Positions 20,509-39,760 of a stretch of 64,000 nucleotides of DNA are shown in pieces. The position numbers and the translations under genes were made by a program. Where the stretch lies: positions 641,914-705,913 of the forward strand of contig JACKEJ010000004.1 of NCBI GenBank assembly GCA_020633055.1. The letters are read 5' to 3'. This DNA is from Sandaracinaceae bacterium (lineage in GTDB: Bacteria; Myxococcota_A; Polyangia; Polyangiales; Houyiibacteriaceae). How positions within the stretch are numbered: position 1 is the first letter of the stretch; the number at the start of each line of letters is the position of its first letter. The notes under the pieces were generated by a model, which did no database searches, had not been told where the DNA came from, and saw nothing but the letters and a program-made list of their open reading frames with translations.

Positions 20509-21732
20509 TCATGGCTTCAGGGCGTCGAGCAACGCCTCCAGGTCGTTCCAAGGGAGCACCGTGACGTGGCTGCGGTCTTGGCGCACGGTACCCCCGTGCA
20601 CCAACCATGCGCTGAACGATGCATCCGACAGTGCTGCGCGCCAGTAGTCGAGCCCGGTGAAGAAGTCGGACGCAACGGTCTCGCCGGACTTGACCTCGAC
20701 GGCTTGGAGGCGACCCGGCGCCGTCTCGATCAACCCGTCCACCTCGTGCCCCGCCTTGTCCCGGAGGAAGTGCAGGTTGGGCGTCTGGCCCGTGTGCGCC
20801 TGCACCTTGCGGAGTTCGGTCATCACCCAGTTCTCGAAGAGTGCTCCGCGCTGGGGATGCGCGACGACATGACCCGGTTGACGAACCCCGAGCAACCAGG
20901 CAGCTAGGCCGGGATCGGTGAAGTACAGCTTCGGGGTCTTGATGAGCCGCTTGGTGGCGTTGTTGAACCAGGGGCGCACCAAGAACAGGAGATGGCTCGC
21001 TTGGAGGACGGACAGCCACGCGTCAGCCGTCACCCGCGTGATGCCAGCGTCGGCGGCCAGCGCGCTGACGTTGACCAACTGTCCGATGCGCCCGGCACAC
21101 AGCTGCACGAAGCGCTGGAAGGTCGCGAGGTCTTGGACATGGAGGACCTGGCGGACATCGCGCTCGAGGTAGGTGCTCACATAGTCCTGCAGCCACACGG
21201 ACGGCTCGACCGGGCGGTCGTACAACGGGGGAAACAACCCGCAGTACAGGAGCTCGTCGACCGTCGTCGGGGCCCGGCCGACCCGCTGCAGCTCTCCCAA
21301 CGAGAACGGCAGGAGCGTGAGCATGGACGCGCGCCCCGCCAAGCTCTGCGTGATGGAAGCCATGAGGTCGAACTGACTCGAGCCGGTCAGGACGAAGCGC
21401 CCCATGCGCCGGTCGGCGTCCACGACGCCCTGGAGGTACGAGAACAGGTCCGGCGCGCGCTGGACCTCGTCGATGATGGCACCGTCCCCCACCTGTCGTA
21501 GGAACGCACGAGGATCGGCCAACGCAAACGCGCGCGTGTCTGGGTCCTCCAGCGAGACGTACGGGAGGTTGGGTGCCAGCAGCCGCGCGAGGGTTGTCTT
21601 GCCCGACTGCCGAGGCCCCGTGATGGTGAGGACGGGGTAGCCAGCCAGCCGCTTGCGCGCGGTGTCCGTCAGGACACGAGGCACGGGGTCAGGGGGAAGG
21701 GCCGGTGAGGTCACTTGGGCGACCATGTCCAT
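20509..21732 (-). CDS. AAA+ superfamily ATPase with DUF4143 (ATP-binding protein of the 'AAA_14/DUF4143' family)
   Basis: Walker A GPRQSGKTT. Overall length and motif order (IIDEVQRAP Walker B/arginine region, C-terminal DUF4143-like) fit this widespread orphan ATPase family. Confidence 0.85.
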   Translation of the reverse strand: MDMVAQVTSPALPPDPVPRVLTDTARKRLAGYPVLTITGPRQSGKTTLARLLAPNLPYVSLEDPDTRAFALADPRAFLRQVGDGAIIDEVQRAPDLFSYLQGVVDADRRMGRFVLTGSSQFDLMASITQSLAGRASMLTLLPFSLGELQRVGRAPTTVDELLYCGLFPPLYDRPVEPSVWLQDYVSTYLERDVRQVLHVQDLATFQRFVQLCAGRIGQLVNVSALAADAGITRVTADAWLSVLQASHLLFLVRPWFNNATKRLIKTPKLYFTDPGLAAWLLGVRQPGHVVAHPQRGALFENWVMTELRKVQAHTGQTPNLHFLRDKAGHEVDGLIETAPGRLQAVEVKSGETVASDFFTGLDYWRAALSDASFSAWLVHGGTVRQDRSHVTVLPWNDLEALLDALKP

Positions 21733-21758
21733 TTGTATACCCGACTATACAAATGGAC
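21727..21758. promoter_or_regulatory. perfect 13-bp inverted repeat (GTCCATTTGTATA-N6-TATACAAATGGAC) overlapping the start codon of the DUF4143 ATPase gene
   Basis: Read directly from the sequence. AT-rich palindrome in a GC-rich genome, located in the 35-bp gap after the WD40 lipoprotein gene and covering the first ATG (21730-21732) of the ATPase gene. Confidence 0.5.
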
Positions 21759-21767
21759 GCAAACCCG

Positions 21768-24530
21768 TCACAGCTCGAGGAAGCGCTGCAACACCTGCGC
21801 GTCCTGCGCGTCGGTCGCCTCGCTCAACGGGACGACAGGCGCCGTCGTGCCCGGGCCCGCCTGGCGGTAGCGGATGCGGTCGGTGTCTGGGTCCACGCCG
21901 TAAGCCGTGAAGCGCCCCGTGGCCTCGTCCACGACGTAGGCGACCACGACGGGCGCGTTGGTGAGCGCGCCCAGCCGAACGGACGCACCGTCCTCGCGCA
22001 CGATGCGCAGGTGATCCCCTTGGGGCATGGCCACGAAGCGACCGTCCGCCCGCGGGTAGTAGCGCTCCGCCGTGCACGCGCCGAACGACACCTGGGCGAG
22101 GTCTTCGACGCGGAGGCGCTGCAGCTCGCCCTCACGGCAGCGGAACAGGAACCGTGCGTCGGACGTGAAGTCGCCGCTGCCCTCCGACTGGAAGTAGGGC
22201 GTCGCCGCGCCGGCCGCGTAGAGCGCCTGGGTCACGGAGGCGGAGTCCGCCCCGACGCGCAGCGTCAGGTGCAGCACGCTCCCGTGGAAGACGGCCCCGT
22301 CGATGGGGTGCTCCGCGCGCAGCGACCACACGGCGCGGGTGCGCAGGTCGACGACGCGCACCTCGTCCCCGAACACCACGATGGCGCGCTGCGGCTCGAA
22401 CACCGCGAACGGCTCGCGGCCCAGCTCGGGGTCCTGATCCACGCTCACCAGCTCGCGACCACGACCGTCGTACAGCGTCATGCGCCACCACGGGCGCGGC
22501 GGCGGCTCCGCAGCGTCGTCGCTGGGCCCCTCGGGCGGCTCGTCGGACTCGAGGGGCGTCCAGAAGACCGCGAGCGACGACCCGTCGGGGCTCCACTCGA
22601 GCCAGTCCACGCCGCGCCCTGCGCTCGTGAGGCGACTCACGCGTCGCCCGTTGCGCGTGTCGAAGTTGGTGACCGGCAGCCCCGGCCCGTGTACGGCGAG
22701 CCGGCTCCCGTCCGGCGAGAACGTGTACGAGGCCGGGCAGTCCGGGCAGGCCTCGCCCGAGCGCGCGCTCACGGGCACGCGCATGCGCCGGCGGCCTGTG
22801 GTCATGTCCCACACGGCGACGGTCTCGTCGTCCTCCTCGCCCAGCCCGACGCTCTCGTTCGCGCTGAGCTGATAGACCATGCCGCGCGCGTCGCGGACCG
22901 CCTGAGGCTCCTCCTGCGCCTCGGCTGCCGGAGCAGCGGCGTCCCCGACGAGCGCGCAGTCGCCCACGGCGCTGTGAACGCGCAGAGTGCGCCCCTCGCC
23001 ACGCAGCTCGGCGCCCGCCATGGCGCAGTCCACGCGGCGCACGCCGGAGGGGCGATAGAGCACACCCCGGTAGCGGTTGGTGACCAGCACGCCCTCACCC
23101 GGCACGAACAGCGCGCCCCACACGCTCTCGGGGCCTGGCCTGGTCACGCGCTCGGCGACCTGCTCGCCGCGGCGCAGGTCCACCAGGTGGATGGCTCCCT
23201 CGTCGACGTAGATCATGCGGTCCCCGGCGGGCGTCACGTACATCGGCTCGAACCCGTACTCGCGCGCCTGCACGAAGGGCGCGAGGGGATGCGGTCGCGG
23301 CTGCCCGTTCAGGTCGAAGGCGCTCAGCCTGCTCAGGCTGTAGACCAGCGTCTCGCCATCGGGTCCGCGTGTGCTCTCGAGGGGCCAGCCCGTCTCCACC
23401 GTGGCGACCACCGCACCGCTCGCAGGGTCCACGAAGTGGACCATCGCGACACGGGGGTCGGCCCGCTGCGTGTCCCAGACCAACAGGCGCTCGCCCGATC
23501 GCAGCCAGTGGGCGGTACGGGCCCTGGTACCCGGCAGGTCGACCGTGTGGCGCAGCGCTCCCGTGAGCGGGTCTCGCAGCTGGACGTCCCCCGCGTCCGT
23601 GAGCGTCATCAAGAGGCCGCCCGTGGGCCGAAAGGCGAGCCCTCGGAAGCCCATGCCAGCCGACGACGTACCCGACGCGGGTTGCTCGCCACCCGGGCCC
23701 GTGGGCGCCGAAGGCGAGGGCTGCGCGGGCACGAGCGTGTCGACGAGCTCGCCCGCGGCGTCGTACAGCCCGAGGCGTGGCGCCGAGGGGACGATGATGG
23801 TCGTACGCTGGGAGGCGTCGGGCTCCTCCCGCTGCACGCGCGCGGCGATGAAGCGGGCCATGCTCGGGCTCACCCACGCCTCCGTGGGTACCAGGAGCTG
23901 TCCGCGCTCGTTGCGCGGCACCAGCGCGCGCCGCACCTCGAGCGTCGCGGCGTCACGCACGGCGAGGCCCGGCGGCTCCAGCGACACCACCAGGGCCCCG
24001 TCCGGGCTCATGTGCGCCGCAGGGAGATAGTAGAGGTCCCCCGTCTCCCCGGGGACCAAGGTGTCCGTCAGCAGGTCCCACACGAACAGGCTGGTGGCAT
24101 AGGGCACGCCGTTCCCGTGCAGCAGCACGCGCGTGCCCGTGGGGTCGAAGTGGGGGGCTCGCAGCGCCCCGCTCTGCACCCACATGCGGCGGCTGGCGCG
24201 GACGTCCCCCGTCTCGAAGTCGAGCACGCTCACCTCGCCGCCGTAAGTGGCCACGAGCGCGAGGCGTCCGTCGGGCGAGATGTCCAGCGAGCGCACGCTG
24301 CCGCTGTGCCCGGCCTGGAACACGGGCCGACCCAGCGCTTCCGGGCCCGCCGCGCGCGCCGCGGGTGCGGGCAGTGACTCGTCGACGAGCAGTGTTCCCG
24401 GTGCCTCGACCTCCGGCTCGACGGGCGGCGTGGTGACCCCCGGTGTGGGCGTGCTGCAGCCGGGGGACGCGAGCGCCCCCAGCAGCACGAGCCAGAGAAC
24501 CGCGGGACCCACCATGGCGCGCTGTCGCAT
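21768..24530 (-). CDS. lipoprotein with WD40/TolB-like beta-propeller repeats
   Basis: Signal peptide and lipobox LASPGC. Repeated SPDG(R/S)LA(V/L) blades (LDISPDGRLALVAT, MSPDGALVVS, FSPDGSRLAVHG, WSPDGSSLAVF). The 890-aa opposite-strand ORF was rejected. Confidence 0.8.
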   Translation of the reverse strand: MRQRAMVGPAVLWLVLLGALASPGCSTPTPGVTTPPVEPEVEAPGTLLVDESLPAPAARAAGPEALGRPVFQAGHSGSVRSLDISPDGRLALVATYGGEVSVLDFETGDVRASRRMWVQSGALRAPHFDPTGTRVLLHGNGVPYATSLFVWDLLTDTLVPGETGDLYYLPAAHMSPDGALVVSLEPPGLAVRDAATLEVRRALVPRNERGQLLVPTEAWVSPSMARFIAARVQREEPDASQRTTIIVPSAPRLGLYDAAGELVDTLVPAQPSPSAPTGPGGEQPASGTSSAGMGFRGLAFRPTGGLLMTLTDAGDVQLRDPLTGALRHTVDLPGTRARTAHWLRSGERLLVWDTQRADPRVAMVHFVDPASGAVVATVETGWPLESTRGPDGETLVYSLSRLSAFDLNGQPRPHPLAPFVQAREYGFEPMYVTPAGDRMIYVDEGAIHLVDLRRGEQVAERVTRPGPESVWGALFVPGEGVLVTNRYRGVLYRPSGVRRVDCAMAGAELRGEGRTLRVHSAVGDCALVGDAAAPAAEAQEEPQAVRDARGMVYQLSANESVGLGEEDDETVAVWDMTTGRRRMRVPVSARSGEACPDCPASYTFSPDGSRLAVHGPGLPVTNFDTRNGRRVSRLTSAGRGVDWLEWSPDGSSLAVFWTPLESDEPPEGPSDDAAEPPPRPWWRMTLYDGRGRELVSVDQDPELGREPFAVFEPQRAIVVFGDEVRVVDLRTRAVWSLRAEHPIDGAVFHGSVLHLTLRVGADSASVTQALYAAGAATPYFQSEGSGDFTSDARFLFRCREGELQRLRVEDLAQVSFGACTAERYYPRADGRFVAMPQGDHLRIVREDGASVRLGALTNAPVVVAYVVDEATGRFTAYGVDPDTDRIRYRQAGPGTTAPVVPLSEATDAQDAQVLQRFLEL

Positions 24531-24667
24531 CGCCGCAGTGTGCGCTTCGCATCTCGCAGCGTCATGTGGGAACACGGCGGCGCCGCACTCGTGGGATTTC
24601 CCCGGAGCGCTTATTGACCCGCGTTCAACAACGATCTAACCTGGAGGTGAGTTGTCCAGGAGGTCTC

Positions 24668-25543
24668 ATGTCCGTCGCAGCCCGCCGCATCGCCCCTGCT
24701 CCGAGCCCCACGTCCCCCGTCGCGGACCGCGCCGAGCGTCCGCGTATCGTCATCCGCCGCGTCGACGTGGACACCGAGGAGCGCGGCGAGAAGTACTGGT
24801 ACAACGGCATGCCCGGCGTGACCGCCTTCGCGTACGCGCTCTCGGCCGTGTTCCCGGACGGGGAGCGCATGTTCATCGACTCGGTGCGGCACTACCGCGA
24901 CCAGATCAAGGACCCCGAGCTGCAGGCCGAGGTGCGCGCCTTCATCGGGCAGGAGGCGCAGCACGGGCAGGTGCACGAGCGCTACAACGCGCGGGCGGAC
25001 GCGGATGGCTTCGCGGTGAGCGCGGTCACGGCGCACGCCCAGCGGCGCATGGCGCGTGTGCGCAAGGTGGCGCCGCCCGAGGTGCAGCTGGCCATCACCT
25101 GCGCGCTCGAGCACTTCACGGCCATGATGGCGGAGCAGCTGCTGGGCAACGAGCTCATGAGCGAGGGCGTCCCGGAGTCGCACGCGACGATGTGGCGCTG
25201 GCACGCGGCGGAGGAGGCCGAGCACAAGGCCGTGGCCTTCGACGTGTACATGACGGTGGACGGCAGCTACGTGCGCCGCATCCGCACGTACCTGGTGGTG
25301 TCGTTCATGTTCTCCGCCACCACGCTCGCCACCACCTACTACCTCATGGCCAAAGACGGGACGTTCTTCAGCCTGAAGAACCACGCACAGCTGCTGCGCT
25401 TCCTGCTCGTCTCGCCGGGGCTGTCGCGCAAGGTGCTGCCCGGCTGGTTCGACTACCTGCGCCCGAACTTCCATCCGTGGGATCGGGACGACCGCCACCT
25501 GCTCGAGCGCTGGAAGCGCGAGTGGGCGCCCTCCTTCCGGTGA
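24668..25543 (+). CDS. predicted metal-dependent hydrolase (PF10118-like)
   Basis: 291 aa with conserved His/Glu clusters (QEAQHGQVHERYN, EHFTAMMAEQLL, WHAAEEAEHKAVAFDVY) typical of this membrane-associated hydrolase family. Confidence 0.75.
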   Translation: MSVAARRIAPAPSPTSPVADRAERPRIVIRRVDVDTEERGEKYWYNGMPGVTAFAYALSAVFPDGERMFIDSVRHYRDQIKDPELQAEVRAFIGQEAQHGQVHERYNARADADGFAVSAVTAHAQRRMARVRKVAPPEVQLAITCALEHFTAMMAEQLLGNELMSEGVPESHATMWRWHAAEEAEHKAVAFDVYMTVDGSYVRRIRTYLVVSFMFSATTLATTYYLMAKDGTFFSLKNHAQLLRFLLVSPGLSRKVLPGWFDYLRPNFHPWDRDDRHLLERWKREWAPSFR

Positions 25544-25612
25544 GCACCCACGCGTCGTCACGGTCGGCCCAAAGAGTCGCCTAGCGAACGCGAGCCCTGG
25601 GCACGTGTGGCG

Positions 25613-25815
25613 TCACTTACCGCCGAACAGGCCGCCCAGCGCGCCCGCGACGCCCTCCGGGAGAACGTCCTTCACGCTGGCGAGCAGCTTGGGACCGTGC
25701 TCCTTCAGGAGGTTCTCCACCACGTCGGCGGCCTGCTTGGCCTGCTCTTCGCTGAGCCCGGCCTGGGCCTTGAGCTGCGTGACGAGGGTGCCCTTGATCG
25801 ACGAGATATCCATGA
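25613..25815 (-). CDS. small (67 aa) helical protein of unknown function, last gene of the NfeD-flotillin-AAA operon?
   Basis: MDISSIKGTLVTQLKAQAGLSEEQAKQAADVVENLLKEHGPKLLASVKDVLPEGVAGALGGLFGGK. Partial SD (AAAGG) 8 nt upstream. Lies 78 bp downstream of the giant ATPase gene on the same strand. Only this C-terminal part of the listed 607-aa ORF looks coding. Confidence 0.45.
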
Positions 25816-25893
25816 TGTGACCTTTCGTGGGGTGGGTCCCCGAGCATGGCGGAAACGAGCGCGCGCGTGAACCCCTCGCGTGCTCCGGGCTGG

Positions 25894-28800
25894 TCAGTCG
25901 TGAGGCCCCACGGCGCGCCCCAGGACGGCGTCGCGGATGGCGGCCAGCTCCAAGCCCAGCCCGCTCAGCGTACCCGTCAGGCGGGTGACCGGGTCCTCGT
26001 CCGCGCCGCCCATCGTCTTCTGGCGCCGGAATTCGCCCTTGATCTCCGCCCAGCGCTGCGCCTCCGCGGCGCTCAGCCTCCCGCGCAGCTCGGCCAGCTT
26101 GAGTAGGTTCTGCTCGGCGCCCGTGGTCAGCGTCTGGGCCTCGCCGCGGTAGTGATCGTCGACCAGCGTCTGCAGCTCGTCCGCGTTCATGGCCGCCACC
26201 ACCTTCTCCGCGATCTTGTTCATGTTGCGGTAGCTGCCCTGCAGCTTGAAGGGCGGCTCGGTGCGGTAGGCGTCCGCTTGGCTGGCCGAGCGCACGTACT
26301 CGGCGTTGACGCGCAGGAGCACGTCGCGCGCGGTGAAGAGGTGACGCAACACCGCGGTGATCGCGTTGAGCTCGGCCGCGCTGTAGGGGTGGCTGAGCTC
26401 GCTGCTGGGCACGGTCTCGCCGCGCGCCATGCGCACCAGCGCGCGCAGGTCCTTCGGGTCGCGCCCGGCCAGCGGCGCGAGCACCGCGTTCGAGGTGAGC
26501 GCGTTCTCGATGTAGCTGAGCGCGAAGGCCTCCTCGCGCCCGCTCAGCACGTCGCCCAGGTTGTAGGTGTCGGCGCGGTTCGCGAGCATGTCCGGGATCT
26601 GGAACTTCTCGCCGCTCTCCGTGTAGGGGTTGCCCGCCATCACCACGGCGAGCTTCTTGCCGCGCAGGTCGTACGTGCGCGTGCGCCCACGGAACACACC
26701 CTCGATGCGCCGCTGCCCGTCGCACAGCGAGATGAACTTCTGCAGCAGCTCGGGGTGCGTGTGCTGGATGTCGTCGAGGTAGAGCATCACGTTGTTGCCC
26801 ATCTCGAACGCCAGGTTGATCTTCTCCACCTCCTGGCGCGCCGTGGCGTTGGGGGCCTCGGCCGGGTCCAGCGACAGCACCTGGTGCCCCAGCGACGGCC
26901 CGTTGACCTTGACGAAGGCGAGACCCAGCCGGCTGGCCACGTACTCCATGAGCGTGGTCTTGCCGTAGCCCGGAGGAGAGACGAGCAGCAAGAGGCCCAT
27001 CAGGTCGGTGCGCTTGGTGGCCCCCGCCGCGCCCATCTGCTTCGCGAGGTTGTCGCCCACCATGGGCAGGTAGACCTCGTCGATCAGCCGGTTGCGCACG
27101 AAGGACGTCATCACGCGCGGCCGCAGCTCCTCGAGGCGCAGGCGCGCGGCCTCGGCGTTGATGAGCTCGTGGCGCAGGGCGCGCAGCGCGCGGAAGGCGG
27201 GCACCTGTTCGCGTTGGTAGCGGCGCAGGCGCGGCAGCAGCTCGTCCACGCGCAGGCCAAGGCGGCGGTCCACGATGCGCGGGTGCTGCCCCAGCAGGTC
27301 GGTCGCGTCGGCCTGCAGCAGCGCCGCCGAGGCCTCGTGGTTGATGACGCTCTCGCTCAGCCACAGCGCGGCCGCCTCGTGCAGCACGGGCTCGGGCGGG
27401 GGCGCGTCCAGCGTGCGCCCAAAGGCCGTGAGCCACGCCAGCGCGACGCCGTGTTGCGCTGGCAGCTGGTGGCTCAGCCCGCTCAGCTCCTCGTCCAGGT
27501 CGCGTCGCGTGCCGTCCAGGTCCAGGCGCTGCTGCAGACGTTCGCGCAGCTTGGCCGCCTCCGCGGAGACGATGAAGCGCGTCTGCGGGGCGCGCAGGAT
27601 CTCGGCCAGGTAGGCCCCCGCTTCGGCGGCGAGCCCAGGCGCCGCGAGCCGCGCCGCGGTCTTGGCGAGGCCCGAGGTGGCCAGCATCTCGGCGATGCGC
27701 TGCCCCAGCTCGTCGGCCAGCTCGGCGAAGGCGCGCCCCTCGCCAAAGCGCTCACGCAGCCGCCCGAGGCTGCGCGCGCGCCGCTGCCAGTCGTCGCCCT
27801 CGGCGGCGCCCACGCGGTGCCCCCAGAAGAGCATGGCCGCTGCGCGCGCCTCCCCCGCGAAGCGCAGCGGACCAGCGGACTCGAGTAGCGTGAGGAGTCG
27901 CTCGAGGATCGCGGCCGCGTCGGCGTCGTGCACGCCGCGCTCGTAGCCCTCGTCGTAGCGGTCGCGCGCGCGCGCCTGCACCAGCGCCAGCAGCCCGCCC
28001 GGCTCGCGCTGGGCCGCGTGCAGCGCCGCGAGCGTCAGCGCGCCCTCGCCGCCCGTGGGCTCGGCCCCCAGCGTGCTGGGCTCCTCGGCCTCGAACAGCA
28101 GCGTCGCGGCCAGGTACTCGCCGCGGTAGACCTCGGGGCTCTCGCTCACCAGGCTCTGCTCGAACAGCGGCCTTAGCGCCTCCAGCTGCGGGTGCTCGGC
28201 CTGCGTGAAGTAGTCCGTGCCCGCCACATGGAAGCTGAGGCCTCCCGCGCGCGGCACCAGGCTCAGCTCGAAGGGCTGGTCGTTGACGCTGAATTCGTGC
28301 CGTCCGAAGCGGATGAGGTCGCCCCCGCTACCGAACAGGTCCAGCTTGTCGCGCAGCCCGCGCAGCGCGTCCTGCCGCGCCGACTTGGTCTTGCTCTCCA
28401 CCTCGTCCGCGTGCACCGCGCCGCCCAGCGCGCGCAGCTTGTCGGCGATCTCGCGCAGCTTCAGCAGCATGGGGTCGGCCGCGAAGTAGGCCTCGAGCCC
28501 CTCGGTCTCGCCGAAGCTGGCCGCGCGCCGGCGCACGCCCGTCAGGATGCGCTCGGCGGCCCCCACCAGGTTCTGGACGCGGCGGTTGCGCTCATCCAGC
28601 AGGCGCTGCTTCTTGGCGTCGAACGCGCTCTGGATCTCCTCGCGCTTCTCGGCGATGTCGGACAGGAACTCGTCCAGCTCGCTGAAGCGCGCCTCGAGCT
28701 CCTCCACCTGCACCATCAGGCGCGTCAGCTCGGTGTCGCAGCCCTCTGGGGTCTCGGCCGCCGCCAGCGCGCTGGCCACCGACTGCGACAGCAGCTGGAA

Positions 28801-30930
28801 CTGCGCGGCGAACTCGGCCTTGCCCTCGGCCGCAGCCAGCGACTTGCGGCGCGCCTGGGCCACCGCACGCACGCGGTTCTGCTGCCCGAGCACGGCGCTG
28901 ATGGCCTCGAGGATGCGCGTGCGCACCGTGGCGTCGTCCACGCTCAGCCCGGCCACCACCTCGCTGATGACCGTGAGCCCCTCGCTGACCTCCACCAGCC
29001 GCGCGTCCAGCGGGACCATCTCCGTCACACGGGTGACGTCCGCCACCTGGGCCTCGATCTCGGTCAGCTCCTGGGCGATGGGGCGCAGCGCCTGGTCCCC
29101 GGTCAGGAAGTGCACGCAGGTCTCGCTGACCTGCTCGAAGGCCTGCTTGGCCTCCTCGCGCAAGCCCGCCACACGGCCCAGGTCCATGAAGCGCAGGTCC
29201 TCGAGGGCCACCAGGCGCCCTTGGTGACGCCGCAGCGACGAGAGGGTCTGCATGTACGCGGCCACGCTCCCCTGCTCGCTGCGCGCCGCATCGAGCAGGG
29301 CCACCTGCTGCCCGCGCGCTTCATCCAGAGCCGCCTTGGCGCGGTCGCGCAGCGCCAGCACCTTCTCGAACTCGCCGACGATGCTGTCGGCCGTGGCCCG
29401 CAGCTCGATCAGCGGGCGACGCAACGCCACCTCGGCCTCGTCCAGCCAGAAGTACGCGTCGAGCGCGCGGTCGACGGCGCGGATCAGGTCCTCGAACGTG
29501 TGCCGCTGCGGCTCGGCGGTCTCCGTCAGCCGCCCGATGGCGTAGGCGTCCGAGAGCCCGCGCACCAGCTCGGCGTTGCCGATGCGCGCCATGAGCGAGC
29601 CGTCCGTGGGCGCCGCCGCGGCGACCTCCGCGGAACAGAACGGCGTCCGCCACACCTGCATCGGGTGCACGCGCGACGGCTCCGCGCTCTCGGAGCGGAA
29701 GACGATCATCTCGCCGTCGTCGAAGATGCTGTAGCCGTGGCACTGGATGGGCGTCTGCATCTCCTTGCGGATGAGGTTGTAGGGCAAGAGCGCGTAGCGC
29801 CCGCTGACGCGCTCGTGGAACACGTAGAGCACGTCCTCGCCGTTTGGGGCCCGCACCGAGGTCTTCAGCTCCATCCCGGCGGGCTGCGCGTCGAAGACCT
29901 TGTAGTCCCCCGTCTGCAGGTAGTAGCCGCCCGGGAACACGATGCCGTGCCCCTCGGGCAGCTGACGGCACGCCTGCCCGATGGCGTCCAGGCGTACCAC
30001 CCGCTGCGCGCGCGGGTCGTACACCAGGTAGCGCGGCTTCTCCTCGCGGAACGGGTGGACGCGCAGCAGGATCAGGTCCCCCACCTTGGCGTAGCGGAAT
30101 TCACCGTCGTCCAGCGTCTGATTCACGTCGTCGACGGGCTCGCTGTAGATGCCCCGGCCGGTGCTCGTGTTGTTCTCGACCTTGATCGTCAGGTCCCCGC
30201 CCAGTGTCTCCACGAAGAGCGTGTCGAGGATGTTCAGGTGCGGGTGCGTGCCCGTGACCTGCGCGTCACGCCCCGCCAGCACCCACTTGAAGTCGTAGGG
30301 CTCGGGGAAGACGTGGTCGCGGTCGCCGCGGTTGTCCACGTAGCGCACCGACCCGTCGGGCTCGATGCTCCAGCGCAGCACCTTCACGTCGCGCGTGGTC
30401 GCGCCCGTCTGCACCACCGCCAGCAGCTTGCCGGCGGTGCGTCGCAGCTGGATCAGCTTGGCGTCGCGGTAGTAGCGAAACAGCTCGTTGAAGTCGGCGA
30501 CGAAGCGTGGGTCCTCGAGCAGCTGCGCGTCCTCGCCCCCGGCCGGCACGTGCCCGAGGTCGTAGTCCCCGTTCACGTGCTCGAAGCGGTGCAGCGAGAG
30601 CACGTGCTGCACGTCCACCTGCTCCTTGAGCTGGAACTCGACGGCGTAACCGAACAGCAAGCGCCCGCGCACCTGGACGATGTCGCGCGGCACGCACGCG
30701 TGCTCCGTGCGCACCCGCACCTGCCCGAGCACCTCGAGGGCCGAGCTGCCGAAGGTCTCGACGCGCCGTTGGTTCAGCCCGTCGAGGCGCTCCCGCAGCG
30801 CGACCCCCTGGGAGAGGAGCCGCCTGCGGATGACCTCGTAGTCCGCGCCGCTCTGCGCTTCGGCGTCCACGCCCCCATTCGGATCGGGGGCACCGGGCGC
30901 AGCGGACGCTGCCGTTCCGTCGTTGGCCAT
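25894..30930 (-). CDS. giant (1678 aa) coiled-coil protein with C-terminal MoxR-like AAA+ ATPase domain
   Basis: Single ORF whose start lies 8 bp after the flotillin stop. N-terminal ~450-aa globular region, ~600 aa of heptad-rich helix, then Walker A LLLVSPPGYGKTT (about 26955-26996), Walker B VMLYLDDIQ and an AVVMAGNPYTESGEKFQIPDMLANRADTYNL sensor segment resembling MoxR/RavA. Confidence 0.85.
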   Translation of the reverse strand: MANDGTAASAAPGAPDPNGGVDAEAQSGADYEVIRRRLLSQGVALRERLDGLNQRRVETFGSSALEVLGQVRVRTEHACVPRDIVQVRGRLLFGYAVEFQLKEQVDVQHVLSLHRFEHVNGDYDLGHVPAGGEDAQLLEDPRFVADFNELFRYYRDAKLIQLRRTAGKLLAVVQTGATTRDVKVLRWSIEPDGSVRYVDNRGDRDHVFPEPYDFKWVLAGRDAQVTGTHPHLNILDTLFVETLGGDLTIKVENNTSTGRGIYSEPVDDVNQTLDDGEFRYAKVGDLILLRVHPFREEKPRYLVYDPRAQRVVRLDAIGQACRQLPEGHGIVFPGGYYLQTGDYKVFDAQPAGMELKTSVRAPNGEDVLYVFHERVSGRYALLPYNLIRKEMQTPIQCHGYSIFDDGEMIVFRSESAEPSRVHPMQVWRTPFCSAEVAAAAPTDGSLMARIGNAELVRGLSDAYAIGRLTETAEPQRHTFEDLIRAVDRALDAYFWLDEAEVALRRPLIELRATADSIVGEFEKVLALRDRAKAALDEARGQQVALLDAARSEQGSVAAYMQTLSSLRRHQGRLVALEDLRFMDLGRVAGLREEAKQAFEQVSETCVHFLTGDQALRPIAQELTEIEAQVADVTRVTEMVPLDARLVEVSEGLTVISEVVAGLSVDDATVRTRILEAISAVLGQQNRVRAVAQARRKSLAAAEGKAEFAAQFQLLSQSVASALAAAETPEGCDTELTRLMVQVEELEARFSELDEFLSDIAEKREEIQSAFDAKKQRLLDERNRRVQNLVGAAERILTGVRRRAASFGETEGLEAYFAADPMLLKLREIADKLRALGGAVHADEVESKTKSARQDALRGLRDKLDLFGSGGDLIRFGRHEFSVNDQPFELSLVPRAGGLSFHVAGTDYFTQAEHPQLEALRPLFEQSLVSESPEVYRGEYLAATLLFEAEEPSTLGAEPTGGEGALTLAALHAAQREPGGLLALVQARARDRYDEGYERGVHDADAAAILERLLTLLESAGPLRFAGEARAAAMLFWGHRVGAAEGDDWQRRARSLGRLRERFGEGRAFAELADELGQRIAEMLATSGLAKTAARLAAPGLAAEAGAYLAEILRAPQTRFIVSAEAAKLRERLQQRLDLDGTRRDLDEELSGLSHQLPAQHGVALAWLTAFGRTLDAPPPEPVLHEAAALWLSESVINHEASAALLQADATDLLGQHPRIVDRRLGLRVDELLPRLRRYQREQVPAFRALRALRHELINAEAARLRLEELRPRVMTSFVRNRLIDEVYLPMVGDNLAKQMGAAGATKRTDLMGLLLLVSPPGYGKTTLMEYVASRLGLAFVKVNGPSLGHQVLSLDPAEAPNATARQEVEKINLAFEMGNNVMLYLDDIQHTHPELLQKFISLCDGQRRIEGVFRGRTRTYDLRGKKLAVVMAGNPYTESGEKFQIPDMLANRADTYNLGDVLSGREEAFALSYIENALTSNAVLAPLAGRDPKDLRALVRMARGETVPSSELSHPYSAAELNAITAVLRHLFTARDVLLRVNAEYVRSASQADAYRTEPPFKLQGSYRNMNKIAEKVVAAMNADELQTLVDDHYRGEAQTLTTGAEQNLLKLAELRGRLSAAEAQRWAEIKGEFRRQKTMGGADEDPVTRLTGTLSGLGLELAAIRDAVLGRAVGPHD

Positions 30931-30937
30931 GGTGGGC

Positions 30938-33067
30938 TCAGTCCAGGCCGAGCTTGCGGGCCTCGGCCAACAGCTGCTTCAGCTTGGCCGCCTTCTCGGT
31001 GTCACCCCCCTGCGCGAGCCGCGCCAGGAGCGCGGTCACGCCGAGGTTCTTGAGGTCCTCGCTGCCCACGCGGGGCGCGCTGAGCACGTCCTTCACGTCG
31101 GCCACCAGGCTCTTGTCGCCGTCGAGGTAGTCCTTCAGCAGCGTCTTGACCGAGCTCGACCCGTCCACGAACGCGTCCGCGCTCTGGCCCAGCGTCACGG
31201 CCTTGACGAAGCGGTCGAAGAACTCGCCGTCACCACCCACGATGTTGATCTTGGCCTGCGCCATGGCCTGCGCCAAGACCTCGGCCTGCGCCTGCGCGAC
31301 GTGTTGCCGCACGGCGATCTGCGCCAGCTCCACCTCGCGCTCCTTGTCGAGGCGCAGGCGGAACTCCTCGTGCTCGCGGCCTACGCCGTCGAGCGCCTTC
31401 ATCGCGGTGGCCTTCTCGGCCAAGCCGGCGGCCTCGGCCACCAGCTTCTTCTCGATGGCCTGCGCCTCGGCCAAGCCGAGCTTCTCCACAGCCACCGCGT
31501 CGGCCTCGCGCACGTGCACGCTGGCCAAGCCTTCCTTCTCGAGGGCCGCCGCCGCCGCTTCCTTCACGCGCGCCGCGGACAAGCCCTTCTGCTCTTCACC
31601 GGCGGCCTCGGCCTCGAGCCGCTGCCGGATGACGTGCGCCTGGGCCACGCCCTCCTTCTCGATCGCGGCGGCGTTGGCCTCGCGCACGCGCACCTCGGCC
31701 AGGCCCTGGGCGGCCACCGCGGCCTGCTCGCCTTCCGCCATGCGCATCTTGGCGCGGGCCTGCTTGTCGGCGGCCTCGAGCGCCGCCTCGGCGTTGACCA
31801 GCGTCTGGCGCGCCGTGTGCTTTGCGGCCACCTCGGCGGCCTCGGCGGCCTTGATCTGCGTCACGTACGACTCCTCGGCCTGCGCCTCGGCGTGGATGAC
31901 GGTGGCGTCCTTCACGCGCTTCGCCTCGGCGACCACGCGCAGGTCCTTGATGCGCTCCTCCTCCTCGGCGACGGTCTTGTCCACGGCCACGCGGCCGCGC
32001 ACCACCTCGGCGATCTCGCGCTTCTTCACCTCGAGCTCGCGGTCCTTCTCGATGCGACCGAGCTCCGTCTCGCGCTCGCGGCTGATGGCCTCGAGCACGC
32101 GCGCCTTCTCCACGCGCTCGGTCTCGACGCCGATCTCGCGCTCGCGGTTCTTCACGGCCACCTCGGCCGCGCGCAGCTTGGCCTCCTCGGCCACGGCGAT
32201 CTCCTCCTCGTGCTTCTTGCGGAGGACCATCGTCTCCTTCATCTCGGCGTCCTTCACGCGCTGCGCAGCGTTCTGCTCACGCGCCTGGGCGATGTCGATC
32301 TCCTTGTTCTTGCGCGCCTCGGCGTCGGCCCGCTGCTGCTCGAACTGGAACACGGCCTCGTCCGCCGTGAGGTCCTGGCGGCCCATCTCCATGCGCTCCT
32401 TCTGGCGCAGCTGGTTCGTGTGCACGTTCTGCACCGCGGTCATCTCCGTGATCTTCCGGATGCCCTGGGCGTCCAGGATGTTGTGCGGGTCGAGGTGCTC
32501 GAGCGGGGTCTGCTCGAGGAAGTCGATCGCGGCGTCCTCCAGCACGAAGCCGTTCAGGTCCTGCCCGATGACGTTCACGATCTGGTCGCGGAACTCCTCG
32601 CGCTTGTTGTAGAGGTCCTCGAAGTCGAGCCGCTTGCCGACCGTCTTGAGCGCCTCCGAGAACTTGGCGTTGAAGAGGTCCTCGATGGTCGCCTGGTCGG
32701 ACGCGCGCGAGCAGCCGATGGCCTGCGCGACCTTGAGCACGTCGTTGACGGTCTTGTTCACGCGCACGAAGAAGTTGACCTTGATGTCCGCGCGGATGTT
32801 GTCGCGGCAGATCAGGCCCTCCTTGCCGCGGCGGTCGATCTCGATCGTCTTGACGGAGATGTCCATCACCTCGGCGCGCGTGATCACGGGGATGATCAGC
32901 CCGCCAGTGAACGTGACCTTCGGCTCACCGCGCAGCCCGTTGATGATCAGCGCGCGACCCTGGTCGACCTTGCGGTACATCTTCGCGAACATGGCGCCCA
33001 GGGCGATGACCAGGACACTGCCCACCGCCACCACGCCGCCCACCACCAGCATCTTCTCGCTCATCAC
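30938..33067 (-). CDS. flotillin-like SPFH/band-7 protein (YqiK family)
   Basis: N-terminal TM helix, then an SPFH domain (KVTFTGGLIIPVITRAEVMDISVKTIEIDRRGKEGLICRDNIRADIKVNFFVRV) and a long EA-rich coiled-coil 'flotillin' region. 709 aa. Confidence 0.9.
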   Translation of the reverse strand: MMSEKMLVVGGVVAVGSVLVIALGAMFAKMYRKVDQGRALIINGLRGEPKVTFTGGLIIPVITRAEVMDISVKTIEIDRRGKEGLICRDNIRADIKVNFFVRVNKTVNDVLKVAQAIGCSRASDQATIEDLFNAKFSEALKTVGKRLDFEDLYNKREEFRDQIVNVIGQDLNGFVLEDAAIDFLEQTPLEHLDPHNILDAQGIRKITEMTAVQNVHTNQLRQKERMEMGRQDLTADEAVFQFEQQRADAEARKNKEIDIAQAREQNAAQRVKDAEMKETMVLRKKHEEEIAVAEEAKLRAAEVAVKNREREIGVETERVEKARVLEAISRERETELGRIEKDRELEVKKREIAEVVRGRVAVDKTVAEEEERIKDLRVVAEAKRVKDATVIHAEAQAEESYVTQIKAAEAAEVAAKHTARQTLVNAEAALEAADKQARAKMRMAEGEQAAVAAQGLAEVRVREANAAAIEKEGVAQAHVIRQRLEAEAAGEEQKGLSAARVKEAAAAALEKEGLASVHVREADAVAVEKLGLAEAQAIEKKLVAEAAGLAEKATAMKALDGVGREHEEFRLRLDKEREVELAQIAVRQHVAQAQAEVLAQAMAQAKINIVGGDGEFFDRFVKAVTLGQSADAFVDGSSSVKTLLKDYLDGDKSLVADVKDVLSAPRVGSEDLKNLGVTALLARLAQGGDTEKAAKLKQLLAEARKLGLD

Positions 33068-33162
33068 TGTCTCCGTTCTGTCGCGGGCCTCGCGGCCTCA
33101 TCCCCTCGGACGTGGCGCGGCCTGCTCGATGAAGGGCAAACCGGCACCCCGAAGGCTTCATT

Positions 33163-33918
33163 TCAGGAATCGGACGGGTGCCCGTCCGATTGTGGGAGCA
33201 CCGCGCGCAGGGGCTCGACGTCGTACACGTCCGCCTCGGCGTGGTACCCGATGATCAGCGCCGCGTCGCCGCGCTTGAGCGCGCCTTCGTCGTCGCAGCG
33301 CACCCGCACGAGCAGGCTGGTTCCGTCCTCGTCGATGATGGCCTGGCCGTCGCGCGCGTCCACGCGCCCCGTACGGATGGTGCACGTGGTGCCCACGTAG
33401 CTCTGCTTGCTGCGCCCCTGGTGCACCACGAACAGCGGCCCGAGTGGGCGCGTGAGCAGCGACGCCACGGGCAGCGCCAGCACGAACGCCAGCAGCGCCA
33501 CGAGCAGCGCACCGAGCCACGCGGGGACGGGCAGCAGGGGCAGCAGGACACGGGCGCCGACATAGGCACAGACCCACCCGGCCAGGAGCACCACCGTCAG
33601 GGTCACGGTCAGGGGCGCGTGCCGCAGGCGCAGCACGGTCAGGATGGCCGCCAGGCCCGAGGCGCTGCCCTCCCCTTCGCCGCCTGCGTCTCCCCCGTCG
33701 GCCGCATCGCCTGCATCGCCGACGTCCGCGCCGTCCGCCACGTCGCCCACGCCGTCGGCGCCGACGTCCACGTCCCAGTCGAGGTCGCCGTCCACGCCGA
33801 ACACGTCGATGTCCAGGGCGCCCAGGATGACCGTGAGCCAGTAGACGAGCACGATGCCGAGGCCCGTGGTGTAGATCACCGTCGGGAAGCTGAGCACCGT
33901 CTGCAGGAAGTCCTCCAT
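33163..33918 (-). CDS. NfeD/YqiJ-like membrane protein (OB-fold C-terminus)
   Basis: TM helices, an acidic D/G-rich linker, more TM helices and a C-terminal OB-fold segment (TTCTIRTGRVDARDGQAIIDEDGTSLLVRVRCDDEGALKRGDAALIIGY). The classic partner of flotillin genes (yqiJ-yqiK arrangement). Confidence 0.8.
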   Translation of the reverse strand: MEDFLQTVLSFPTVIYTTGLGIVLVYWLTVILGALDIDVFGVDGDLDWDVDVGADGVGDVADGADVGDAGDAADGGDAGGEGEGSASGLAAILTVLRLRHAPLTVTLTVVLLAGWVCAYVGARVLLPLLPVPAWLGALLVALLAFVLALPVASLLTRPLGPLFVVHQGRSKQSYVGTTCTIRTGRVDARDGQAIIDEDGTSLLVRVRCDDEGALKRGDAALIIGYHAEADVYDVEPLRAVLPQSDGHPSDS

Positions 33919-34055
33919 AGGGGTCGGGAGCCTCTCACGCGCGCGGGTGGCCATGCAATCCACACCGGCAGGGCGCGACCTGTGGAGGGAAGCGGAGGGC
34001 TGCGCCAGCATGGCGCGCGCGGGGTCTCCGAAGGGGCAACCCGGGGTGGGCGGGT

Positions 34056-34913
34056 TTGTTCTGTGGGCCACGCCGATTTGGGCGGCCCGTGCACCGCGAA
34101 GGTCTTCGTTTGGTCATCGAGCGGCTCTTCGGATACGAGCGCGCCGCGCTGATCGGCTTGCCCGTGGAGCGGCTGGTGCCCGTCGAAGCGCGGCAGCAGC
34201 ACGTGCAGAAGCGCGAGCGATACGAGCGCGTGGGCCGGACGCGCTCCATGAGCGACCTCGACACCCTCGCCCCCGTCCGCCAGAACGGCGAGCTGGTGCC
34301 TGTGGAGATCAGCCTGAGCCCAGTGGACACGTCCATCGGCAAGCTGACCATCGCCATCGTGCGCGACGTGACCCGGCGACGGGCGTTGGAGGCCGACCTG
34401 CGCCACGCGAGCACGCACGACGGGCTGACGGGGCTGTTCAACCGGACCCACCTCGAGTCCGTCCGGTCGAGCCTCGAAGCGAGCGGCCAGATGGTCGGGG
34501 TCGTCCTGATGGACATCGACGGCCTCAAGGCCGTGAACGACACCTACGGGCACGAGGCGGGCGATCAGCTGATCAAGCGCGTGGCCGTGGTGCTGCGCGC
34601 CATGTCCGCGCCAGAGGACGTCCCCACACGTCTGGGAGGCGACGAGTTCGCGCTGCTGGTGCCGGGCACGGACGAGGCGGGTCTGGCCGCGAAGGTGGAG
34701 CTCTTGGGGGACGAGCTCGCGCGCCACAACGAGCTGCATCGCGGCCGGCCGCTCTCGTTCTCGCTCGGGGCCGCGTTGACGGAGCAGCGCGGCGGCATCG
34801 CGCTGGCCATGCGCGTGGCGGACCGCCGCATGTACGAAGACAAGCGCCAGCGGCGCAGGGCTCGCGGAGAGCCAGACGGGAGCGTGCCTCCTCCGTCTGC
34901 CACGCCCCGCTGA
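34056..34913 (+). CDS. GGDEF diguanylate cyclase with a partial N-terminal PAS-like segment
   Basis: DGLTGLFNRTHL...MDIDGLKAVNDTYGHEAGD...RLGGDEFALLVPG is an intact GGDEF. Only the second half of a PAS fold precedes it. Confidence 0.75.
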   Translation: MFCGPRRFGRPVHREGLRLVIERLFGYERAALIGLPVERLVPVEARQQHVQKRERYERVGRTRSMSDLDTLAPVRQNGELVPVEISLSPVDTSIGKLTIAIVRDVTRRRALEADLRHASTHDGLTGLFNRTHLESVRSSLEASGQMVGVVLMDIDGLKAVNDTYGHEAGDQLIKRVAVVLRAMSAPEDVPTRLGGDEFALLVPGTDEAGLAAKVELLGDELARHNELHRGRPLSFSLGAALTEQRGGIALAMRVADRRMYEDKRQRRRARGEPDGSVPPPSATPR

Positions 34914-36971: not shown

Positions 36972-37870
<899 letters not shown>

Positions 37871-37874
<4 letters not shown>

Positions 37875-39760
37875 CGCCACCGCGGCTCCGCACCCTGGTG
37901 GTCGCCGCCGACCCCGCCGCCGCGAGCTTCGCGGACCGCGTGCTGCGCGACCACGGCGACGAGGTGACCATCGCCGTGGACGTACCCGACGCGCTGGCCC
38001 AACTCACCCGCTCCGAGCACCAGCTGGCGCTGGTGTCCCTGTCACTGCCCCGCGGCGACGGGCTCGCGCTGGTGCATCACATTCGTGCGCTGCACCCCGA
38101 CGTGGACGTGGTTGTCATGACCGCCCCGAGCGAGCTGGCCGACACGGCACACGCGCTTGCGCTGGGTGTGCTGCAGAGCGTCATGCTCCCACTGACGGGT
38201 GACGCGCTCCTGGTGGCCGCGGACCGCTGCCGCGAGCGGCGCATCCTGGTGGAGGAGCGGAAACGCTTGGCGGCCGAGGGGGAGCTCAGCCAGAAGCGCA
38301 CCGCCACCTACGCCCGATGCGCGGCGTTCGTCGCCGAGACCGACCCCACCGTGGTGGGCGCGCGCGTGCTCGACGCGTGCGTGGCGGAGTGCAGCGCCAG
38401 CACGGGGGCGCTCTACGCGCCCGCCTACCTGGGCGCCAACGACTACGCGCGCGTCGCGACGCACGGTGAGCGCACGCGCTTCCCGGGCGTGCTCACGCAG
38501 GAGGAGCTGCTGGAGCTGGACCCCACGCGGGCGGTGGTCGTCGAGCGCGAGCGGCGCGCCGATGTCACGCGCGACGTGGTGCGCGTGGCGCTGATGGGCA
38601 CGGCCGAGCTGGACGCCGTGCTGCTGCTCGAGTGTGAGCGCGTCGACACTGCGGGATTGGCGGGCCTCGAGGTCATCGCCGGGCTGGGCACGGCTGCGAT
38701 GACCGCCGCGCGACGGGTGGACGCCATTGCGCGCTCGGGCATCAAGGATCCCGAGACCAGCGCCTACACCTTCGCGTACTTCGGCGACGTCGCCGGGCGC
38801 GAGATCGATCGCGCCGCGCGCCACCAGCGGCGCTTCTCGCTCTTGATCGTCAACCTGGACGGCGTGGAGGCGGCGCGCCCGCAGCTCGACCCGGAGACCC
38901 TGCTCGACTTCCGGCGGCTCCTGAGCGACGCGCTGCTCGAGACGGTGCGCGACTCCGACGTGCTCGCGCGCGTGGAGGACGACGAGTACTACGTGCTGCT
39001 GCCCGAGACGGGCCTGCTGGGAGCCCTGGCCGCGAAGCGCCGCATCGAGTCGCGCTTCAACGAGCTGACGGAGCTGGCCCGCTTTCAGGCGGCGAGCGGG
39101 GTGGACCCGGTCGTCGGTATTGCCGTGTTCCCGTCGGACGGGGGTGACCTGGGGCGCCTGCTGCGCGTGGGCCGCCGCCGCGCCGAGCAGTCGCGGGCCG
39201 GTGTGTTCCGGCGCATGGGGCTCGCGCGCATGCCGTTCTGGGAAGCCATCGACCTGTTGCTGGGGGACCCCGCGGACGTCACCTTCCCGCCCGAAGGCGG
39301 CGTGAAACTGCACGAGGACCTGGAGCGCAACCACGACGCGCAGGGGCTCGCGCAGCACGTCGTGCTCCCGCGCGAGCTGCTGCCCCGGGTGGCGCGCACG
39401 CTCATCGGAGACGCCACTCGGCATCGCGCCGTGGGCACGCTGTACGCGGCCGGAGACCCTGGGATGGTGGCCGCGCTGGCGGACGCGGTGGGAGCCGAGC
39501 CGTCCACCGTGCGCGCCTGGGTGCTGGGCGGGGAAGCGGGTGCGCCGGGGAGTGAGCTGCGCCTCCCGGTCGCCGACGAGCGGCTGCGCGAGGGCGTGGT
39601 GCTGCTCGCGCTGAGCGAGATCGGCGGCTACATGCTGGTGGGGCGCAGCCTCCCCAACGGGTCGCTGCTGGCGTACCACGCCGCCGACCTCGACCTGGTG
39701 GACGGGCTCATCACCGCGCTACAGGCCGCCTATCATCTGCAGCCGGAGGTGCGCGTATGA
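37871..39760 (+). CDS. response regulator with REC, GAF-like and degenerate GGDEF domains
   Basis: Start overlaps the dapF stop (ATGA). N-terminal REC (LVVAAD...DVVVMTA). The GGDEF-like region has RVEDDEYYVLLPE in place of GGDEF, so it is probably a non-catalytic c-di-GMP-related domain. Confidence 0.8.

Follow-up and report, generated by a model that had tools for sequence, protein, structure and literature searches.

In a 64-kb stretch of the genome of a Sandaracinaceae bacterium (contig JACKEJ010000004.1; the whole stretch is hereafter called the window), three consecutive genes on the minus strand encode a YqiJ/NfeD-like membrane protein, an SPFH/flotillin-like protein and a giant AAA+ ATPase carrying a DUF3686 domain. 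Our analysis indicates that these genes are a myxobacterial abbreviated operon of the bacCDE type, corresponding to the core of the bac cluster of Pseudomonas aeruginosa, and that the system has already been described. An earlier reading of the window from its letters alone (the original prediction) had regarded the coupling of an NfeD-flotillin pair to a giant ATPase as undescribed; this claim has to be withdrawn, since Ravi et al. 2024 (PMC11237479) describe the coupling and work on the bac cluster dates back to 2008 (PMC2587700). The window adds no new kind of system; it shows that what is conserved as a unit is the core of three genes. As to function, we lean slightly towards an abbreviated membrane-stress/remodelling operon, in which the soluble ATPase would remodel the SPFH/NfeD scaffold or its clients under envelope stress.

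Orthology to bacCDE and conservation of the three-gene unit

The bac cluster ('Biofilm-Associated Cluster'), which is phage-shock-like, was defined as PA3732-PA3729 by Macé et al. 2008 (PMC2587700). Wallart et al. 2024 demonstrated by reverse transcription polymerase chain reaction across every junction, including bacC-bacD, bacD-bacE and bacE-bacF, that bacABCDEF is co-transcribed, and proposed a σ54 promoter for it (PMC10948618). In BLASTP comparisons, the window ATPase shares 49% identity over 1642 aa with BacE (PA14_16190, our P0126; 1746 aa), which belongs to a cluster of 3222 member sequences, and the SPFH protein shares 51% identity over 641 aa with BacD, while the NfeD-like protein shares 34% identity with BacC (PA14_16160; E 1e-29). 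The P. aeruginosa locus that we examined (L086) has the order DUF2170-PspA-213 aa-688 aa-DUF3686-PLD-yaeQ-recJ-lasB, and the forward primers reported for the 16180/90 and 16190/200 junctions (PMC10948618) have exact matches inside its SPFH and DUF3686 genes. On the strength of the BLASTP results together with the placement of the forward primers, BacE (PA14_16190) is the DUF3686 ATPase and the ortholog of the window protein. The reverse primer PA14_16180/90_R (GCGATGCAGTTGTTTTTCGGT; supplement of PMC10948618) has no match in this locus with up to 3 mismatches, perhaps because the strains differ or the primer was misprinted in the supplement. The Arc2 genes of Ting et al. 2022 (PMC8926400) were also considered as the bac genes and discarded, being a different locus (PA4317-23); PA3729 figures in that study as an immunoprecipitation background protein only.

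In a scan of one genome per species, at least 568 stretches were found to encode a relative of the ATPase, of which the best 80 were retrieved together with 10 kb of sequence on either side. The window proteins were then searched against all six-frame open reading frames (ORFs) of these loci, and neighbours were counted on the 74 loci whose upstream flank was 3.2 kb or longer. In 71 of the 74 loci, the gene immediately preceding that of the ATPase, in the same orientation, is an SPFH homologue whose end is at most a few hundred nt away from the ATPase start (median distance 109 nt), and in 68 of the 74 an NfeD-like gene is also present directly upstream of the SPFH gene. In two loci (L012 and L076), an insertion of 3-6 kb separates the SPFH gene from the ATPase gene. 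The surveyed loci belong to Myxococcota, Actinobacteria, Gammaproteobacteria (Pseudomonas, Xenorhabdus, Lysobacter, Pseudoalteromonas and others), Planctomycetota and Acidobacteriota. The NfeD-SPFH-ATPase arrangement is thus far beyond chance, and the conserved unit consists of three genes, not four. The recurrence of ATPase homologues beside SPFH/NfeD genes in at least five phyla is also the observation on which the original prediction had staked itself beforehand.

When the flanking ORFs of all loci were clustered, a chaperone-like DUF2170 (YjfI/CesT-Tir-like) gene was found directly upstream on the same strand in 17 of the 80 loci and a PspA/IM30 gene (ESCRT-III superfamily) in 16, mostly in Gammaproteobacteria as far as the record titles show. 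Downstream of the ATPase gene, a single-HKD PLD gene is present in 8 loci (L046, L048, L049, L052, L060, L062, L063 and L070) and a rhomboid gene in 7; the PLD (BacF) gene of the P. aeruginosa locus lies at L086:13260-13952. The PspA, DUF2170 and PLD genes are lineage-specific additions to the three-gene core. No rhomboid gene was found in the 64-kb window.

The distribution of the family also bears on a role in conflict or defence, in which the module would sense membrane damage by phages or toxins and bring about protection or abortive infection. The original prediction had raised defence as a possibility; we now judge it improbable. Defence systems often include large multidomain ATPases and proteins of the PLD family. 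The module is patchily distributed among Pseudomonas species, where horizontal transfer has been suggested (PMC13086221), and weak PADLOC v2 matches to LmuB, IetA and DndD were obtained (E 1e-3 to 7e-3; best LmuB, 9e-4). However, these matches are marginal and confined to the P-loop or a coiled-coil-like region, the latter in the case of LmuB, and neither the SPFH protein, nor the NfeD-like protein, nor the small protein has a PADLOC v2 match. Moreover, the ATPase occurs in 0 of 50,697 phage records and in only 13 of 72,556 plasmid records, most of which are 0.4 to 11.9 Mb in size; its gene is essentially chromosomal. The P. aeruginosa protein stands for 3222 clustered sequences and its gene lies beside yaeQ-recJ-lasB in the locus examined, and the genes flanking the cassette in the window are not recognisable defence genes.

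Sequence features and predicted folds of the encoded proteins

The three ORFs span positions 25894-33918 of the window, which has a G+C content of about 71% (Table 1). Their third-position G+C fractions are 0.90 (NfeD-like), 0.97 (SPFH) and 0.96 (ATPase), with second-position values of 0.37-0.50 across the three, a pattern that fits a genome of 71% G+C and so marks them as real genes; long ORFs on the opposite strand lack it. The gap between the NfeD-like and SPFH genes is 95 nt, as originally given, whereas the SPFH stop and the ATPase start are separated by 7 nt rather than the claimed 8 bp. The SPFH gene is preceded by GGAG 6-9 nt 5' of a GTG/ATG start. For the NfeD-like gene, 16 homologues from other phyla begin at an aligned 'M..FL...L.FPT' motif, and, judged from this alignment, 33918 is the correct start.

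Table 1. Positions of the genes, domains and motifs in the window, with the evidence for each
Feature	Position (nt, unless given as aa)	Strand	Evidence or remark
YqiJ/NfeD-like (BacC-like) membrane protein	33163..33918	-	251-aa ORF; start backed by aligned homologue N-termini
SPFH/flotillin-like (YqiK-like, BacD/PaFlo3-like) protein	30938..33067	-	709 aa; Pfam Band_7 5e-9
Giant cytoplasmic AAA+ ATPase (BacE-like; PGAP 'DNA repair ATPase')	25894..30930	-	1678 aa; DUF3686 4e-191
Predicted β-propeller of ATPase, aa 66-428, after long helix aa 22-60	29647..30735	-	AlphaFold2 + Foldseek
DUF7902 segment of ATPase, aa 613-697, inside helical middle region	28840..29094	-	Pfam PF25472 4.3e-25
AAA+ module of ATPase, about aa 1300-1530	26341..27033	-	Catalytic motifs + AlphaFold2 model
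Walker A GYGKT, aa 1321-1325	26956..26970	-	Invariant in alignment
Walker B LYLDD (D1386-D1387)	26770..26775	-	DD, within LYLDDIQH
β-hairpin before sensor 1	aa 1408-1421	-	AAA+ module
Sensor-1 N1434, conserved R1452 and R1568	AAA+ module region	-	Alignment
66-aa ORF	25613..25813	-	80 nt downstream of ATPase stop; good coding statistics

The ATPase is matched in Pfam by DUF3686 over aa 45-494 and by DUF7902, as well as weakly by AAA (2e-7) and AAA_5 (1.1e-5; 25.9 bits versus a cut-off of 22) over aa 1314-1440, with no match to AAA_3 (MoxR). A partial 'DNA repair ATPase' of a Myxococcales metagenome-assembled genome (P0002) matches it at 98% identity, and more than 5900 homologues were scored. 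The DUF3686 family comprises 732 clusters at 50% identity, 248 of them at E <= 1e-30. Among the 150 best matches listed, nearly all apparently full-length sequences (about 1600-2000 aa) have DUF3686 at the N-terminus, and the shorter ones are probably fragmentary for the most part. In two Sorangium homologues (P0033 and P0042), an extra PilZ domain (PF07238) is listed ahead of the DUF3686 propeller, which hints that the ATPase of some myxobacteria responds to cyclic di-GMP; such an input would agree with the biofilm link in P. aeruginosa. The window ATPase contains no predicted transmembrane (TM) segment or signal peptide, and a sequence search of the PDB returned solved relatives matching at the P-loop level only.

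AlphaFold2 modelling of aa 1-510 from a 30-sequence alignment gave a mean predicted local distance difference test score (pLDDT) of 85.2 and a predicted template modelling score of 0.82, with a helix at 22-60, a β-rich domain at 66-428 and helices thereafter. The leading recognisable matches of this model in a Foldseek search of the PDB are β-propellers, with E down to 2e-7, among them the DCAF1 WD40 domain, Sec12, the prolyl oligopeptidase propeller and sialidases. The following roughly 800 residues have a helix-favouring composition, with breaks at about aa 600-660 and 840-960 and a DUF7902 segment whose composition differs from its helix-rich flanks; on composition, this middle region appears largely helical and may contain coiled coil. 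The term 'giant coiled-coil' of the original prediction hence fits only in part: the middle is helix-favouring but interrupted, and the N-terminal 430 aa are predicted to form a helix and a β-propeller instead.

The AlphaFold2 model of aa 1230-1678 (pLDDT 77) shows an AAA+ core in which a β-hairpin separates Walker B from sensor 1, and its closest structural matches by Foldseek are the MoxR remodelling chaperones CbbQ and NorQ. By this model, the module belongs to the MoxR/dynein/midasin clade, which has a β-hairpin before sensor 1, in agreement with the MoxR-like module that had been called at the C-terminal end of the protein. Walker A, Walker B, the sensor-1 Asn and several arginines are invariant among 14 aligned sequences of 56-73% identity. 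MoxR ATPases normally act together with a VWA partner. Such a partner was looked for and is not conserved, a VWA gene lying near the ATPase gene in only 3 of 84 loci, on the opposite strand. These are the Myxococcus/Corallococcus loci L001 (16373-18157, minus strand), L002 and L007, in which a secreted-looking VWA/YfbK-like gene stands in convergent orientation just downstream of the ATPase gene, probably by coincidence.

Thousands of sequences of the family carry the label 'DNA repair ATPase' (NCBI PGAP) or 'ATPase involved in DNA repair' (Pfam), for which we found no support in the sequence, the context or the literature searched. A DNA repair function, as the Pfam description of DUF3686 and the PGAP product name imply, would draw on these database names, on weak RuvB_N/RuvB similarity at the P-loop (RuvB at about 1e-7 in Foldseek) and on recJ lying three genes downstream in P. 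aeruginosa. In contrast, no DNA-binding or repair domain was found with Pfam/NCBIfam, the RuvB equivalog model scored 23 bits against a cut-off of 282, and the invariant genomic partners are membrane proteins. Our literature search found no paper mentioning DUF3686 and none linking 'DNA repair ATPase' with flotillin. We therefore regard DNA repair as very improbable, and the product name is probably a misannotation.

The SPFH protein comprises an N-terminal TM anchor, an SPFH domain (aa 33-177), a Glu/Ala-rich helical region of about 350-400 residues and a C-terminal region; the anchor is its single N-terminal hydrophobic segment and is followed by basic residues. The Band_7 match upholds the SPFH call made originally. 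The protein is 28% identical over 472 aa to E. coli YqiK (BLASTP, E 3e-33). A Pfam Flot domain was not detected at E up to 1 either in this protein or in P. aeruginosa BacD, in contrast to E. coli YqiK (6e-41), and the PDB sequence search returned no solved relative.

The NfeD-like protein is laid out as TM1, an acidic Gly/Asp-rich loop, TM2, TM3 and a C-terminal β-rich (OB-like) domain, and has no significant match in Pfam, NCBIfam or the PDB sequences. A 17-sequence profile of its family nevertheless aligned to E. coli YqiJ with an hhalign probability of 95% (E 4e-8), the match spanning TM2, TM3 and the C-terminal β domain, and among the 17 members Pfam recognises YqiJ_N in 2 and NfeD in 1. 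The profile match thus supports the earlier 'NfeD/YqiJ-like' call, with the family appearing to be a divergent subfamily.

The original prediction had described four tightly packed, co-oriented minus-strand genes. Three of them stand at the positions given; the fourth, announced as a possible 67-aa protein, is a 66-aa ORF that lies outside the module. This ORF looks like a real gene, with G or C at nearly every third codon position, AAAGG 8 nt before its ATG and a weak DUF2267 match (E 0.006). However, a phmmer search of the first 84 loci fetched, in all six frames, gave no homologue, and the sole homologue of this ORF (L088:7816-8160; E 5e-30) is near a PF10118 hydrolase fragment on the contig of an 86%-identical ATPase, where the hydrolase gene sits between that homologue and the ATPase gene. 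Membership in the module was ruled out, as no locus has an ATPase-adjacent homologue, and the ORF seems to go with the hydrolase region beside it, not with the cassette.

The cassette is bordered upstream by a divergent gene without a Pfam match and downstream by the 66-aa ORF followed by a convergent PF10118 metal-hydrolase gene. Consensus scans detected neither a σ54-like TGGCAC-N5-TTGCA site (<=2 mismatches) near 33919-34200 nor a σ70-like site in 25300-34400. Five terminator-like sites were found, not far from the 2.8 expected from shuffling, and they lie inside coding sequence and not in either gap. Together with the 7-nt and 95-nt gaps and the positive reverse transcription results for the orthologous junctions of P. 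aeruginosa, this is indirect evidence that the three window genes may be co-transcribed. Elsewhere, the window carries an AAA_14/DUF4143 ATPase gene (411 aa) and, just downstream of the cassette region, a gene for a 935-aa WD40-repeat protein, within 20509-24575 (minus strand), and, on the upstream side, genes for a DAP-epimerase-like protein (36972-37874) and a response-regulator-GGDEF protein (37871-39760, plus strand). None of these four is kept beside the cassette in the other loci.

Proposed mechanism and alternatives

Bacterial flotillins and PspA have been widely studied. To our knowledge, the PspA/ESCRT-III systems of bacteria are in general without a partner resembling Vps4. A giant AAA+ protein locked to the flotillin-NfeD pair in at least five phyla and at least 568 stretches, with 732 clusters, is an obvious candidate for this missing motor, and the ATPase is a good candidate energy source for flotillin and PspA dynamics in bacteria. 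One member of the family is a core gene of the pathogen P. aeruginosa with ties to a cluster involved in biofilm formation and virulence.

By analogy with the solved SPFH assemblies HflK/C-FtsH, QmcA-YbbJ and flotillin-1/2, the SPFH protein and its NfeD partner might form an oligomeric ring or cage on the inner membrane, facing the cytoplasm. In line with AAA+ remodellers such as MoxR, dynein and midasin, the ATPase would oligomerise through its AAA+ ring, probably as a hexamer, dock on or under this scaffold via the propeller and the helical arms, and draw on ATP for the assembly, disassembly or remodelling of the scaffold or its clients. These clients might be PspA polymers where such are present, or else lipid patches or membrane proteins that have been damaged, and the system would serve in envelope-stress tolerance. 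An assembly at the cytoplasmic face would fit the ATPase, which lacks TM segments and a signal peptide, and the SPFH anchor with the basic residues that follow it. FtsH inside HflK/C and Vps4 on ESCRT-III would be the closest analogies. The ATP-driven machine at a flotillin scaffold, with a role in envelope stress, that the original prediction had put forward agrees with the contextual inference of sub-membrane dynamics by Ravi et al. (PMC11237479) and with the PspA linkage in 16-17 of 80 loci.

A more specific version, which we find rather doubtful for now, is that the DUF3686 ATPase represents a new class of membrane-remodelling motor, in which a hexameric MoxR/dynein-clade ring with six long, helical, propeller-tipped arms would grip the flotillin/NfeD cage and, in genomes that encode them, PspA/ESCRT-III polymers, whose assembly or disassembly, like that of the cage, it would power with ATP in a Vps4-like manner. 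If true, this would be a bacterial functional analogue of Vps4, or of FtsH in HflK/C, for flotillin microdomains in hundreds of species from Myxococcota to Pseudomonas.

The general remodelling-operon reading draws on the conserved gene order, the short gaps, the invariant catalytic motifs and the MoxR-like fold of the ATPase, and on the co-transcription of the orthologues in P. aeruginosa. In that species, bacA and bacB mutants lose biofilm formation, rhamnolipid production, swarming and virulence (PMC2587700; PMC10948618). The mutant of PA3731 (BacB, PspA-like) shows defects in biofilm, swarming, rhamnolipid and mouse-lung virulence, and the protein builds up on osmotic shock (PMC2587700), while in the bacA mutant the BacB-F proteins are raised 6- to 13-fold together (PMC10948618). 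Several points weigh against the reading. The bac phenotypes stem from bacA and bacB, both of which are absent from the window, and in PA14 a mutant deleted for the SPFH gene alone (paFlo3) formed only some 20% less biofilm and was not impaired under stress, in motility or in virulence (Garcia-Maldonado et al. 2026, PMC13086221). No PspA or DUF2170 gene was found in any frame of the 64-kb window by phmmer, with the PspA proteins of Pseudomonas sp. PH1b (L048) and Ca. Thiodiazotropha (L078) and the DUF2170 protein of L048 as queries, and the window has no PLD homologue, so that a PspA-centred mechanism would need a partner encoded elsewhere, or have none. The Walker B motif is hhhhDD in all 14 aligned family members, compared to the canonical DE, and the enzyme may accordingly hydrolyse ATP slowly or act like a switch. 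A VWA partner is not conserved and none is encoded beside the cassette in the window, and the ATPase occurs with neither an SPFH nor an NfeD-like gene within 10 kb in Labilithrix sp. (L080) and in Sorangium cellulosum (L003, fetched separately). Our literature search found no paper on the biochemistry or structure of the ATPase.

The scaffold might, alternatively, be a passive platform to which substrates are confined, and the ATPase might unfold or extract membrane proteins there that are misfolded or damaged, as an ATP-dependent counterpart of the ATP-independent FloA-NfeD holdase of S. aureus or of HflK/C gating FtsH. SPFH cages that enclose or gate an AAA+ enzyme are exemplified by HflK/C-FtsH, as cited in PMC13086221, and FloA-NfeD is reported to stabilise unfolded proteins (PMC11222466); a rhomboid intramembrane protease gene, moreover, follows the ATPase gene in 7 loci. 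However, the ATPase has no protease domain, a protease partner is conserved only in a few Gammaproteobacteria, and the AAA+ fold is closest to MoxR-type remodellers, not to classical pore-threading unfoldases. We consider such client processing unlikely and retain the remodelling of an SPFH/NfeD scaffold or its clients under envelope stress as the favoured reading.

Comparison with known systems

Like E. coli YqiJ-YqiK and B. subtilis YuaF-FloT, the window locus has a 3-TM NfeD-type gene followed by a gene for an N-terminally anchored SPFH/flotillin protein with a long coiled-coil region. Different from it, yqiJK of E. coli K-12 is followed by small-RNA and toxin-peptide genes and not by an ATPase gene, and compared to YqiK, the window SPFH protein is about 150 aa longer and has no detectable Pfam Flot domain.

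The best structural precedent for the cooperation of a flotillin with an ATPase is HflK/C-FtsH, in which an SPFH membrane assembly is likewise coupled to an AAA+ hexamer. FtsH, however, is a membrane-anchored enzyme of the classical AAA clade with a protease domain, whereas the window ATPase is predicted to be soluble, is 1678 aa long, and combines a module of the MoxR/dynein clade with a β-propeller and no protease; the sequence kinship of the two goes no further than the AAA+ fold. The MoxR chaperones CbbQ, NorQ and RavA are proteins of about 250-500 aa that act with a VWA/MIDAS partner. The window AAA+ module differs from them in standing at the C-terminal end of a 1678-aa protein, in its low identity of about 14%, in the DD of its Walker B and in the lack of a conserved VWA partner.

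The closest relative is bacABCDEF itself (PA3732-PA3727; PA14_16140-16200). The window operon lacks bacA (DUF2170, CesT/Tir-like), bacB (PspA/IM30) and bacF (PLD), as well as a recognisable σ54 promoter, whereas its three proteins are collinear with BacC, BacD and BacE over essentially their full length, at the identities given above, and their genes have the same order and strand. Ravi et al. 2024 (mSystems, PMC11237479) described an operon of CesT/Tir-PspA, a band-7/flotillin protein, a 3-TM YqiJ/YuaF-type protein and an AAA+ ATPase with a coiled-coil region and a β-propeller, joined by PLD in some Proteobacteria, and reported abbreviated operons without the PspA dyad to be more widespread. 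Their description takes up one comparative-genomics paragraph with no experimental part, in which the AAA+ module is left unclassified and the linkage is given without numbers. In its list of components and in their architectures it agrees with what we found, and the 80 loci surveyed here show both the full and the abbreviated form of the operon.

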